A DNA stretch of 64,000 nt from Candidatus Cloacimonadales bacterium (GTDB lineage: Bacteria; Cloacimonadota; Cloacimonadia; Cloacimonadales; DAONDQ01): assembly GCA_963662275.1 (NCBI GenBank), contig OY759316.1, positions 1,184,001 through 1,248,000 of the forward strand, in the 5' to 3' direction. Position 1 is the first letter of the stretch; every line of letters starts with the position of its first letter. Made by a program: the position numbers and the translations under genes. Below, piece after piece: positions 24,668-29,659 of this stretch. Below the pieces are notes generated by a model. It did no database searches and was not told where the DNA came from. It saw only the letters and a program-made list of their open reading frames with translations.

Positions 24668-25138
24668 ATGGATAATACAAGTTTAGATTTTAACTCCCGG
24701 AAGCATGACGTTTTGAGTAAAGCAGTAATAAATCAATTCGTTCCAAAGTTTATGCCGGATGCGGTTTTAGTTTATTCCACTCTAGCAATTGATTCTCCTG
24801 AGCTCGATAAAAATCTTCAAGTTAAGTTATGTATTCCAACTGACAATTCTCAGACATTACCTGATATTATTTTATATAAATCTGATTCCAACTGGCTAGT
24901 ATTAATCGATTTGATTACCAAGCATGGAACAATGGATAGTAATCGATGCAATGAACTGATTGAAGTGTTTAAAGATACTCCTGCAGAATTGGTTTTGGTA
25001 AATGCATATCGTAATAAAAAGGAAATGAATGAGTCTCAAACTGATTTAGCCTGGGGAACAAATGCCTGGTTTGCCGAAGAACCGGAACATATGATACATT
25101 TTGATGGAAATCACGTTGTAGAACCGTACAAGAAGTGA
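24668..25138 (+). CDS. Stand-alone BsuBI/PstI restriction endonuclease C-terminal domain
   Basis: LPDIILY....NWLVLIDLITKHG..D..R..EL, LAWGTNAWFAEEPEHMIHFDG; N-terminal HTH domain absent. Confidence 0.75.
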   Translation: MDNTSLDFNSRKHDVLSKAVINQFVPKFMPDAVLVYSTLAIDSPELDKNLQVKLCIPTDNSQTLPDIILYKSDSNWLVLIDLITKHGTMDSNRCNELIEVFKDTPAELVLVNAYRNKKEMNESQTDLAWGTNAWFAEEPEHMIHFDGNHVVEPYKK

Positions 25139-25294
25139 CTATTCAGTAATTTCTTCTTTTTTACTTCTTGACGTTTTTTTCCTATAGTTCGATTTGTTTA
25201 AAAATTCTTTTGATAGATTTACAGGCAATGAATATGATATAAAATCGGTGGGAGGATAAAATGCAGTTCATTACAATCAATAATCTTAATCACA

Positions 25295-26242
25295 ATGAGT
25301 ATAAAAATGAAGAAAACTAAAGATCAGGTCAGCGAACAGGAGCCAAGCTTAAAGTCGTATTATGTCGCTCCCAATATATCCAAGAAATTGGCTATAGGAA
25401 GCAAAAGAATCTGTGATTGCGGTCCGACAAATATCAATTGCATGACTCCTAAGGAATGGATGAAATCCCAAATCGGTGTTTGGCAATTTACCTATGATAA
25501 ACGTGATGTTAGAGATAAAACAGTTCATCCTGCTACGTTTCCTATTAATTTATCGAACAAGATTGTTAGTTTATTTACCCATAGAGGTCAGCTTGTCATT
25601 GATCCTTTTGTTGGAAGTGGAACTACCATGCTTTCATGTTTAGAATTACATCGTAATTGTGTCGGTTTTGATTTAAATGAAGCCTATATCGAAGTCTGTC
25701 GAACAAGAGTAGCCCAAGAGCTTTCTTTTTCAGATACAAAACAGATTGGAATATGCAATGATGCTCGTAATATCAATCAATATATTGAAGATAATACCGT
25801 GAGTTTAGTCTGGACATCTCCTCCATACGCTAATCTTCTCAATCGTAAAAGACAAAACAAATCACGCAGAGACAGGCTGAATGATCAATTTGATAAGGTG
25901 GAGCAATACTCACAGGATGAAAGAGATTTAGGAACCTATGATATTGAGAAATGGACAAAGGAAATGGGAGATATCTTTGAAGCTCTATTGCCTCTAATGA
26001 AAACAAAAGCTCATTGTGTCATTAATGTACCTGATTTTTGGTGGGAGAATAAGAGGATAGTTCTGCATGTTTTCCTGATTGAAGAATTGCATAGAAGAGG
26101 TTTTGAACTTCGTAACACGATTATCTGGGATAGAACCAATATCGTCAATAATATTGGCATCTTCGGTTGGCCTAGTAATTACATCACCATGGGAACTACT
26201 TTTGAATATCTTTTAGATTTTTGGAAACCACCCAAATCCTGA
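25295..26242 (+). CDS. DNA amino-methyltransferase, probably N4-cytosine, alpha-type motif order (M.MvaI-like)
   Basis: HPATFP, motif I DPFVGSGTT before motif IV TSPPY; adjacent to an MvaI/BcnI-family endonuclease; exact start uncertain. Confidence 0.85.
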   Translation: MSIKMKKTKDQVSEQEPSLKSYYVAPNISKKLAIGSKRICDCGPTNINCMTPKEWMKSQIGVWQFTYDKRDVRDKTVHPATFPINLSNKIVSLFTHRGQLVIDPFVGSGTTMLSCLELHRNCVGFDLNEAYIEVCRTRVAQELSFSDTKQIGICNDARNINQYIEDNTVSLVWTSPPYANLLNRKRQNKSRRDRLNDQFDKVEQYSQDERDLGTYDIEKWTKEMGDIFEALLPLMKTKAHCVINVPDFWWENKRIVLHVFLIEELHRRGFELRNTIIWDRTNIVNNIGIFGWPSNYITMGTTFEYLLDFWKPPKS

Positions 26243-26255
26243 TAAAGGAGCTTGC

Positions 26256-27041
26256 ATGTTAGAAGTCTATTCTAAAGAAGAGATTATTGCAAAGCTGAAA
26301 GAGATTAAAAACCTGGGCTGGGTTAAGAATACCAGGCAAGGGAATGACGGCTCAGTTGGTAATATGCTAGAAGATTTACTCGGTATTCCTGAGAATAACT
26401 TTGCCGTTGCTAATTCAGGTGAATGGGAAATCAAAGCCAAAAGAAAGAATTCTTCATCGTTAATGACACTCCTACATAATGAACCATCTCCCAGGAATGC
26501 AGACCTCGTTTCTAAATTACTTTTACCATGTTATGGCTGGAAACACCAACAAGCTGGAATTAAATATCCAGAACATGAAATGAGTTTTCGGCAGACGATA
26601 TATTGTAAAAGATACAGCGACAGAGGTTTTACGGTTTTATTAGATAGGAAAGAAGAAAAGATAACTATCAAATTCGATTACACAAAGGTTGATGAACGTC
26701 ATTCGGTATGGTTAAATGAAGTTAAAAATAGAATTGGTTTAGCAGATATTAATCCTGTTCCGTATTGGGGCTTTCGTGATGTCGGGGCACATATCGGAGC
26801 AAAGCTAATCAATTGCTTTTATGTAGCTGCTGAAGTGAAGAAAGAAGATGGGCAAGAGTATTTCCAATATTCTGATATAAAGATGCTCAGTACTTTCTCA
26901 TTAGAAAAATTCATTGATGCCCTTGAACATGATCTGATCTATGTGGATTTCGATGCCAGAACCGGTCATAATCATGGTACTAAATTTAGAATCAAAGAGA
27001 ATTATATCCATTTGCTGTATGCGAATGTGAGGGAGATATAG
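26256..27041 (+). CDS. MvaI/BcnI family type II restriction endonuclease
   Basis: [27 protein letters not shown]...[15 protein letters not shown]. Confidence 0.85.
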
Positions 27042-27336
27042 ATTATGGGAAACAGAAGTCAGGATTGCTGATAATCCTGATCATATGATACACTTTAATG
27101 GAAGTAAGTTTATGGGACCGTATTAGAGGTGATTAAGGTTTGTTAATATCGTTTAAACTTAAATAAAATGTACTGTACAGTACTGTACTTGTTACTTAAG
27201 TATTTTAGAATTAATAAAAGAGGTGTTATGTGAAATTTTATACACTTTACAGCTATCCTTAGTACTTTCCCACCCTTTTCTTGACATATAAAATCAAATA
27301 TTTTTCTATTTCTGATACAACACAAAGGAGGATATC

Positions 27337-28130
27337 ATGCGTTGGATTTGTATAATTTCATTGATTTTTACTTTTTGCTTTTCGCTGTTTGCTTCCAGTA
27401 CCCCTCCTGGCTCAATAGACATGGTCTATGTGGAAGGCAGTTCTTTCACCATGGGCGATACAGCCGGTGGAGGATCAAGCGATGAAAAGCCCACTCACCA
27501 AGTTACGCTTTCATCTTTTTATATCGGTAAATATGAAGTAACGCAAAAACAATGGCAGGAAGTCATGGGTAATAATCCATCATATTTCAAAGGCGATGAT
27601 CTACCTGTAGAACAGGTTAGCTGGTATGACTGTGTGGATTTCTGCAATAAACTGAGCCAAAAAGAAGATTTAACACCCTGCTACAGTGGAAGCGGAGCAA
27701 AAATCACCTGCAATTGGAATGCAAATGGTTATAGACTTCCTACGGAAGCAGAATGGGAATATGCTGCTAAAGGCGGTAATAAAAGTAAAGGTTTAAGATT
27801 TTCTGGAAGCAAAAAACTTCGTAGCGTGGCATGGTATTATGGTAACTCTTCCAAAACCAACCAGGTTGGACAGAAGCAGGCGAATGAACTTGGCATATAT
27901 GATATGACGGCAATGTCTGGGAATGGTGCTGGGACTGGTATGATAAAAGCTATTACAGTAAGAGCACTGCATCCAACCCGCAGGGTGCAGATGCGGGCTC
28001 GTACAGAGTCTTGCGGGGCGGTTCGTGGAACAGCTTCGGCTTCAACTGCCGTGTTTCCTGCCGCCCCGACTATTTCTCTCCCGACTGCGGGTACTTCTTC
28101 ATTGGGTTCCGTTTGTTTAGGGCTAAATGA
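27337..28130 (+). pseudogene. Secreted FGE-sulfatase/CLec-fold protein with a 1-nt deletion near 27908
   Basis: Signal peptide, [39 protein letters not shown]; continues in another frame as [11 protein letters not shown]...RVLRGGSW...IGFRLFRAK* (TGA 28128-28130). Confidence 0.85.
28011..28120 (+). other. Putative DGR variable region (VR)
   Basis: RGGSW-to-GFR segment dominated by NNC codons; by hand count 11 A and 62 G+C in 110 nt, against an AT-rich background. Confidence 0.65.
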
Positions 28131-28405
28131 TTGGGTTTTGAGTTTTTGTTCTTTGGGCTTTCTTCAAGCTTTTAGCTTTCTGTGACATAAGATTGTATCT
28201 TGTTATAACCTGAAGTTTGCAACTGTAGGAGTCTCGTAACATAGAGTGGTACTCTGTTGTATGAGCGGATTGGTAATCCCCGATGGAAGTACAATTCGAC
28301 AATACCATTATCGATTACAACACATTGCCAATGTTAGTTACAAGATTGTCGTCCTGAAGGGCTCCAAGATTCCTGAAGTAATCTTTACGTTTCCTGAAGA
28401 AAACA

Positions 28406-29659
28406 CTACAAGCTAGAGGAAGTGAATAATTCTGCCAATTGCTTTGTCCTGTTCTTTGCTTCATATTTCTGAATTTCTTCCCAATTTGGATTGTGAATGA
28501 ATGACTTGGACTTAAAAGCAGCCTGGAAATCTAAAAGAGCTTGCATGATTTCTTTCTTATCATCAATATCAACTGTAATCCCTGTTTGCGTCTTAGAAAT
28601 GAATTGAGCTAAATCACTGTGCTTGTCGTTTAACAGGAGAATTGGGCGATTCGATCGAATACATTCGAATGCTTTCCCTGGAAATGTCCCATTCAGTTCT
28701 TTATTTTTTAACAGCATAATTAACAGAACATGAGAATTCATGAGGTTTTCAAGGCTCTGTTTGTGGGGGAGAAAACCGTGGAAAAGGAGTAATTTATGAT
28801 CGATGAGTTCTTTAAACTTTTTGCTGAATGTTTTATAGGGATATTTTGTTGAAAGATTTAATTGAATCCTAATCGAATGCTGCTTATAAATCTCCAGAAT
28901 CGCATCTGCGATTGGATCAAGCGGAACTAGTGAACTGACACTCCCTGAATAACCGATGGTTAAAACATCAAGATCTAAATCATTCACATCAGTATTCGTG
29001 GAGGGAAAATCAGCATCATCATATCCATTATAGAGAAATTCGAATTTATCCTGGAATTGAGGGTATCTTTCTTGATATATCTTCGCAATCGATTCAGATA
29101 CCTGGATGATGTGATCTGCATCACTAAAGCAGGTTTTCTCTAAATCACACTTTCTTTGATATAAATCGTTATGATAATTTCTATCGCTATAGATATTCAA
29201 GGTAAATGGATCCCTAAAATCAATGATGATCGGTATTCCGAACTTTCTTTTCAGTGTTGATACGATAGCCATCAGGGAAAAGCTGGGTACGGTCATATAT
29301 ATGGCTTCTATTTTCATTTGTTTCGTGATCCTGTCTATTTCCTTGATAAGGTAAGGAAGCCAGAGGATATATTCATCAGGTAAATAATTCAATAATCCCA
29401 TGCTGCGCAGCATCTTTTTTACTTCACCAGGCAAGAATTTCGGGAAATTTGGGAAGAAAGGTCTGATTATTTGAATATCACTCGGGATTTCCTCTAGCAT
29501 GGAAGGATCTTTTATCATTTTTGAAGACCATGTGGGAGGAGTTAAGACAATTGGATTCCAACCAACCTGGGGTAAGTATTTAACAAATTTGGTAACTCTC
29601 TGGACACCAATCCCTCCAATTGGAGGAAAAGAGGTTGATATGATAATGCAGTTCTTCAT
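28406..29659 (-). CDS. GT4 glycosyltransferase
   Basis: FPPIGGIGVQRVTKFVKYL...GW, DFRDPF, NGYD..DF, PGKAFE. Confidence 0.85.
   Translation of the reverse strand: MKNCIIISTSFPPIGGIGVQRVTKFVKYLPQVGWNPIVLTPPTWSSKMIKDPSMLEEIPSDIQIIRPFFPNFPKFLPGEVKKMLRSMGLLNYLPDEYILWLPYLIKEIDRITKQMKIEAIYMTVPSFSLMAIVSTLKRKFGIPIIIDFRDPFTLNIYSDRNYHNDLYQRKCDLEKTCFSDADHIIQVSESIAKIYQERYPQFQDKFEFLYNGYDDADFPSTNTDVNDLDLDVLTIGYSGSVSSLVPLDPIADAILEIYKQHSIRIQLNLSTKYPYKTFSKKFKELIDHKLLLFHGFLPHKQSLENLMNSHVLLIMLLKNKELNGTFPGKAFECIRSNRPILLLNDKHSDLAQFISKTQTGITVDIDDKKEIMQALLDFQAAFKSKSFIHNPNWEEIQKYEAKNRTKQLAELFTSSSL

Follow-up and report, generated by a model that had tools for sequence, protein, structure and literature searches.

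A probable orphan variable region of a diversity-generating retroelement in a frameshifted FGE/C-type-lectin-fold gene of a Candidatus Cloacimonadales bacterium

One gene in the 64,000-nucleotide stretch of Candidatus Cloacimonadales DNA analyzed here (the window) ends in what is probably an orphan variable region, written by a diversity-generating retroelement (DGR) and now frozen in a recent pseudogene, the DGR core having been lost from the chromosome. We observed an A-poor, NNC-rich scar at the 3' end of the gene, a fit of this tail to the templates of DGRs in related genomes, and the absence of both an RT and a template from the assembly. From sequence comparison, a DGR origin of the tail is well supported, because its misfit to the relatives' template is biased toward adenines and four paralogous tails have no such bias.

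Results

Structure of the gene and site of the frameshift

The gene lies at window positions 27337-28130 (+ strand). It is of the FGE-sulfatase/C-type-lectin-fold type and is disrupted by a 1-nt deletion at 27907-27909. The 5' part (27337-27908, +) has an N-terminal hydrophobic segment, MRWICIISLIFTFCFSLFASS, judged signal-like by eye, and positions 4-181 of the Pfam FGE-sulfatase profile (PF03781) match within 27337-27906 (E = 1.1e-32). The match resumes in a frame shifted by one base, with profile positions 183-254 in 27909-28128 (E = 1.6e-14). This 3' part (27909-28130, +), also assigned with PF03781, contains RGGSW, ends in GFRLFRAK and stops at 28128-28130. We conclude that one base is missing at 27907-27909 (+) because the gene has GATATGAC-GGCAAT at a site where its two closest paralogues have GATATGAGTGGAAAT or GACATGAGCGGAAAT. 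On the 3' side of the break, the 73 codons of the correct frame are free of other stops and defects, which suggests a recent inactivation. Programmed frameshifting was rejected, as no slippery heptamer was seen by eye at the break.

The break is not an error peculiar to this assembly. Contigs from public runs, one of which may be the source sample, cross the frameshift with 0 differences and 0 gaps (X4, 27498-28009; X5, 27661-27987), and the X1 and X3 contigs cover the site from both sides. The preliminary description of this DNA held that the frameshift hides the tail in the open reading frame track, and indeed the tail is out of frame in the listed ORF (27337-28185, 282 aa).

Among solved structures, the Treponema denticola variable protein 2Y3C is the best match to the closest intact paralogue (286 aa), with E = 1e-41 and an alignment that spans RGGSW...GFRL. 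Since the alignment runs through this segment, the A-poor stretch sits at the usual variable-region site of FGE-type DGR targets. Together, the two PF03781 halves and the 2Y3C match place the variable stretch at the C-terminal tip of a C-type-lectin/FGE fold. The core of the variable region (28029-28103, +) consists of 25 A-poor, NNC-rich codons in which the fixed elements CRV, R and PD match the templates of relatives. It is followed by GFR, the residues LFRAK and the stop (28104-28130, +); the TR/VR homology of relatives ends here, and by position this segment would be IMH-like.

A restriction-modification island lies directly upstream of the gene (24668-27041, +). It is made up of a 156-aa ORF whose only domain is a BsuBI/PstI endonuclease (24668-25138, +), an N6/N4 DNA methylase (25295-26242, +), and a MvaI/BcnI-family endonuclease (26256-27041, +).

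Base composition and codon use in the tail

The codon string that first drew attention to the tail is present at 28029-28112, directly after CGG GGC GGT TCG TGG (RGGSW, 28014-28028). The adenine content of 28011-28190 had been put at about 10%; the depletion is real, and the measured value is 12.8%. Within the 25 variable codons, 10 of 75 nucleotides are A (13.3%), compared to 205 of 690 (29.7%) in the rest of the gene (Fisher p = 0.0026). The third position is C in 19 of the 25 variable codons versus 51 of 230 codons upstream (p = 1.3e-7). When only two-fold NNY codons were counted, 14 of 15 ended in C in the tail, compared to 26 of 69 upstream in the gene (p = 9e-5) and 147 of 529 in five neighboring ORFs. 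The C-ending bias is therefore not a by-product of amino-acid content.

In this genome (39% G+C), 75-nt windows that are equally A-poor make up 0.34% of the total, and 27983-28186 is the longest of the 15 A-poor clusters in the window. The tail has the lowest A content among the 40 tails listed for the genome, and those of the two closest paralogues come next. Live variable regions (VRs) of relatives have A contents of 0.17-0.28 and a third-position C in 12-18 of 23-26 codons; with 0.13 and 19 of 25, the window tail is at or beyond the range of the live VRs in both measures.

DGR cassettes of relatives and fit of the tail to their templates

The relatives used for comparison were 40 genomes, one from the same genus and the others from the same order. 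PF00078 matches were present in 22 of the 40 (23 of 41 genomes with the window's own). Eight RT loci from seven genomes were selected by the length of the RT ORF (343-433 aa) and a profile match starting at position 7-11. In seven of the eight, an AAY-rich template accompanied the RT and an Avd-like ORF; translated, these templates read GGSWNNNDNNCRVANRNNNNPDNSNNNNGFR or close variants of it. Complete cassettes, with FGE target, Avd, RT and AAC-rich template repeat (TR), were found in G007 (C13), G035 (C57), G031 (C130), G003, G023, G025 and G037. The eighth locus (G031:C100, L038) had neither a template nor an FGE target. In four TR/VR pairs from three of the genomes, mismatches fell at template adenines in 7 of 8, 8 of 8, 8 of 8, and 6 of 7 cases (60-nt windows), and a fifth pair (G003) was visible in translation.

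The window tail retains all of the fixed elements of these templates and varies at their AAC and AAT codons, with one extra codon. With the tail-to-template gap placed by MAFFT, independently of the templates, 24 of the 34 adenines of the closest template (G025) are mismatched in the tail, compared to 11 of its 59 other positions (p = 1.3e-6). When the dropped codon was instead chosen to minimize non-A mismatches, the counts were 25 of 34 and 10 of 59. All six templates gave an adenine-specific mismatch with the window tail (p ≤ 0.001). In contrast, no adenine bias was seen in four control tails of this genome whose composition is ordinary (17-20 of 34 vs 23-34 of 59).

The match to the template is only approximate (11 of 59 non-A mismatches) because the DGR-bearing relatives belong to other families of the order. 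The adenine-specific mismatch was seen only against these diverged templates of relatives, and we infer the writing event from them since no exactly matching template was found anywhere. The preliminary description had read the NNC tail as the A-to-N product of an AAC-rich template, and had identified the stretch as the variable region of a DGR target in an FGE/C-type-lectin gene, at the site where such targets carry it. The adenine-specific misfit to templates of live DGRs in the same order agrees with the former, and the fold, the position and the fit to templates bear out the latter.

Sister paralogues and the FGE family

The genome has 48 PF03781 matches, two of them in the broken window gene and others in a giant ORF with ten domains, and 46 domain ends make up its FGE family. 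The tails of this family grade continuously in A content, from 0.13 to 0.38. The closest paralogues, at about 2107157 (-) and 1051796 (+) of the chromosome (G000:C1), have the same A-poor scar.

We compared the three sister genes in pairs. Upstream of the tail, the differences at codon positions 1, 2, and 3 numbered 43, 44, 95; 30, 25, 82; and 36, 31, 81, and about 41% of third positions differ. Within the tail, the corresponding numbers were 10, 10, 6; 13, 15, 5; and 16, 13, 5. Differences thus shift from third positions upstream to positions 1 and 2 in the tail (p = 0.006 to 4e-6). The sites that vary among the three tails fall on template adenines of relatives (31 of 34, vs 15 of 59 other positions; p = 3e-10). 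Given the third-position divergence upstream, the sisters would be either old residents or three separate imports.

Several other features of the family were noted. Many FGE paralogues share a DNA-level tail after GFR, GGnTTyCGn-nTnTGy-AGGAnTnCCCCTTGATTTTTG; this loose motif has nine exact matches in the genome, each immediately after an FGE domain. The window gene and the sister at 2107 kb differ from it in the tail after GFR (TTGTTTAGGnCTAAATGATT). Outside the window, G000:C1:1953190-1953400 holds a degenerate FGE remnant (NGYRLPTEAEWEF...) with an internal deletion and an in-frame stop; its tail is A-poor and NNC-like and ends in GFRLCRVSP. A pair of ORFs judged by eye to be tyrosine recombinase-like and transposase-like (G000:C1:2109578-2111593; L017 9578-11593) lies 1.7 kb from a sister FGE gene. 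Just upstream of this pair, at 2109431-2109457, is an exact 27-nt copy of window positions 28178-28204.

Search for a DGR core in the genome

The assembly is a single contig of 4,378,784 bases, estimated by markers to be 99.97% complete; plasmids or phages of the same cell would be missing from it. There were 18 matches to the RT profile PF00078. In 17 of them the open frame also encodes a GIIM maturase domain, and one representative of these GIIM-bearing RTs reads as a group II intron RT. The remaining match, an 893-aa RT-Cas1 fusion, is the only non-group-II RT match in the genome. Its ORF (G000:C1:3092718-3095399, -; L018 2718-5399) has an RT domain and a Cas1-like C-terminus, and CRISPR-associated-looking ORFs adjoin it. 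No DGR-clade RT was found in the genome with the PF00078 profile or by tblastn with seven DGR RTs of relatives. The latter gave 17-18 matches per RT, and the matches listed, up to six per RT, fell on the PF00078 loci, at 27-31% identity.

Avd proteins of relatives gave a best E value of 0.004 against the genome, at three of its four PF05635 genes. These are stand-alone four-helix-bundle genes of the Avd/23S-rRNA-IVP family (105-148 bits; G000:C1:4057914, 1305744, 1265377, and 4195650), and no RT match or template-like window was seen beside any of the four. Nowhere in the genome was an Avd gene found next to an RT and a template.

We searched the genome in three ways for a cognate template repeat, one that would depart from the tail only at template adenines, and all three were negative. 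BLAST of the tail recovered only the two sister tails. A scan for stretches identical to the tail except at A yielded none for the window tail and none for 35 tails. When 30-codon windows were scanned for 11 or more AAY codons, the template was recovered in seven of seven loci of relatives, and this genome gave three windows, none of them template-like. The window itself had been described as free of an RT and of a template repeat, and none was found there. Extending the search to the whole genome, as had been proposed, turned up neither a TR nor a DGR RT by profile, tblastn, compatibility and AAY scans.

Searches outside the genome and in population data

BLAST of 27880-28200 against the 40 relatives gave no template, and nearly all matches were confined to the conserved part. 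No template turned up either when the tail was compared by BLAST with 231 other genomes from the phylum; the only two matches were weak and were other A-poor variable regions. We also searched three public collections for the exact 22-mer that precedes the tail (28010-28031), a search in which records from the window's own genome may be left out. It was present in seven metagenome stretches, five genome-collection stretches and no viral stretches (viral_contigs). All 12 are unrelated high-GC DGR-type sequences with at most 81 of 121 positions adenine-compatible, and they were rejected as templates.

An intact or variant allele was sought among 5.8 billion protein clusters. The best match outside the window's own genome was P0012, with 76% identity over 76% of the query, and the others beyond it were at 75% or less. 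The own-genome matches were the 282-aa ORF of the window and the paralogue P0002 (76%). The cluster that holds the frameshifted ORF has one member sequence.

The stretch occurs in five public runs from two studies, with no RNA data set listed among them, and contigs from four of the runs were examined. Those covering the tail had 0 differences (X1 and X3, 27909-28400; X4, 27980-28232; X5, 28007-28232), and no variant fell between 27945 and 28266 among the contig variants listed. Because contigs drop rare variants, this identity counters only large-scale or between-sample turnover.

The 3' flank and a dispersed hairpin-module repeat

A T-rich flank (28131-28190, +) with weak 7-nt periodicity follows the gene and is common to the paralogue (G000:C1:2107007-2107060). 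The 7-nt periodic tract of the preliminary description was thus recovered as a weak autocorrelation (lag 7, z = 3.8) and not as a tandem repeat: Tandem Repeats Finder reported nothing in it at a minimum score of 30. Readings of the tract as a tandem repeat or as a terminator were rejected, the latter for want of a terminator-like hairpin after the stop. The fold of 28120-28420 was no better than those of shuffled sequences (z = 0.15), and Rfam gave 0 matches over 27000-28500 at E ≤ 1.

Outside the gene, 28181-28345 (+) is a copy of a small, REP/MITE-like dispersed repeat built from hairpin modules that have TGGTA/TACCA loops and GTAAC...GTTAC ends. The repeat has 25 loci in the genome (38 HSPs, 75-94% identity) and was found in none of the 40 relatives, including the one in the same genus. 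Copies lie within 600 nt downstream of 10 of the 46 FGE-domain ends, compared to 0.17 expected at random positions (2000 random-position trials, maximum 3). At the nine FGE-linked loci besides the window's own, the main copies are opposite in orientation to the gene, and three of the nine have an additional short piece in the orientation of the gene. Of the 15 other loci, 13 have no FGE gene within 2.5 kb. The repeat at 28181-28345 was rejected as a conserved DGR cis element because it was absent from all 40 relatives; the best match in 19 loci of relatives (L021-L039) had E = 0.23.

Discussion

We propose that the locus is a recently inactivated paralogue, broken by a single-base deletion, of a large secreted family with an FGE-sulfatase/C-type-lectin fold, and that its predicted C-terminal ligand-binding tip was formerly rewritten by a DGR. 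The RT would have copied an AAC-rich template repeat, roughly GGSW-NNNDNN-CRV-xN-R-NNNN(N)-PD-NSNNNN-GFR, misreading its adenines, and the resulting cDNA would have replaced the variable region, leaving NNC codons and few adenines. With Avd, RT and template no longer in the chromosome, the tip would be frozen. The two closest paralogues carry the same scar, and one lost template probably served all three genes. The tail would then have been written by a DGR of this lineage that was later lost. A frozen leftover is the most likely state of the tail, rather than a working remote target, because the gene is frameshifted. As judged from sequence, the tail seems as fresh as live variable regions, which would fit a very recent loss and, equally, a DGR that persists off the chromosome.

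The preliminary description had taken a DGR acting in trans to be implied. Our data do not bear this out: there is no RT or template in the genome, no template was found in 231 genomes of the phylum or in the public 22-mer scan, and the tail is identical in four runs. Such a DGR is possible only with an element outside the assembled chromosome. Its RT and template would reside on an extrachromosomal element, a phage or a strain-variable island and would still be rewriting the three sister tails, a situation we consider improbable. It would account for the single scaffold common to the three tails and for an A content and third-position C at or beyond those of relatives' live VRs; a writing DGR may still exist since the tail is as unworn as these. 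Passages in two reports (PMC4891356, PMC8144416) document remote targets of DGRs, and one of them notes that such targets escape contig-based surveys (Roux et al. 2021, PMC8144416). However, a chromosome with neither a DGR RT nor a template, a frameshifted target gene, and contigs from four runs that are unbroken and identical through the tail all speak against current rewriting, as does the 22-mer, with 0 exact matches in viral_contigs and 12 elsewhere in unrelated high-GC DGR sequences. That a writing DGR persists off the chromosome and serves at least three FGE genes purely in trans is accordingly something we regard as unlikely. If it were true, the hairpin-module repeats behind FGE tails could relate to how remote targets are found.

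Two further accounts would give the tail another origin. The tail could have been written in another organism, the gene or its ancestor having arrived by horizontal transfer without a DGR core. The gene does adjoin a restriction-modification island and small mobile repeats, DGR sequences from unrelated high-GC phyla also have the 22-mer found ahead of the tail, and acquisition of the target alone is named as an alternative for one T. denticola leftover in the relevant passage of PMC4891356. Yet the three sisters differ at about 41% of upstream third positions, the best match outside the genome among 5.8 billion protein clusters is only 76% identical (P0012), no nucleotide match exists in 231 other genomes of the phylum, and the 46 FGE domain ends form a continuum of tail compositions; we consider transfer improbable. 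Nor does it seem at all probable that no retroelement was ever involved and that ordinary diversifying selection, codon preference or gene conversion shaped the binding loop. The loop after RGGSW is a variable binding surface in all FGE-type lectins, and the family tails are continuous in A content (0.13 to 0.38), as this account would have it. It is already disfavored by the C-ending two-fold codons (14 of 15 vs 26 of 69 in the same gene), by the conservation of third positions where positions 1 and 2 vary, and by the coincidence of variable sites with the template adenines of relatives (31 of 34 vs 15 of 59), which control tails lack.

Loss of the DGR from the chromosome, the reading that we prefer, can be set beside three known systems. 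The DGR cassettes of relatives agree with the window gene in target family, in tail scaffold (GGSW..CRV..R..PD..GFR), and in the NNC signature of their VRs. They keep Avd, RT, and a template downstream of the RT, and the window genome has none of the three. TvpA of Treponema denticola is served by a resident DGR. Like the window gene, TvpA (Treponema denticola variable protein 1, PDB 2Y3C) has an FGE-subclass C-type-lectin fold with a C-terminal VR between RGGSW and GFRL; in contrast, the reading frame of the window copy is disrupted 5' of the VR.

The closest parallel is in T. denticola isolates that have no RT or TR and carry "leftover" FGE target genes, as described in passages of Nimkulrat et al. 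(2016, Front Microbiol 7:852, PMC4891356). An adenine fit to related templates in a genome with neither RT nor template, as found here, is how those passages define a leftover or orphan DGR target. By the same passages, the leftovers and the window gene share an FGE-sulfatase/C-type-lectin target-like gene with a signal peptide (here recognized by eye only), a VR whose differences from the templates of relatives with a DGR lie mostly at template adenines, and several such genes per genome in the absence of an RT or template. They differ in that the DGR-bearing relatives here are from other families of the same order and not strains of one species, in the additional frameshift of the window copy, and in the host, here an uncultured environmental bacterium. 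No new mechanism is revealed, as the same situation is already in print for T. denticola. The window tail would be one more DGR-written binding tip that has outlived its retroelement, and its composition makes it the freshest of those in this genome. Relics of this kind help in dating the loss of DGRs and in mapping surface lectins that were formerly diversified. The orphan state thus appears to occur also in an uncultured environmental lineage that has, within its order, relatives with the complete cassette.
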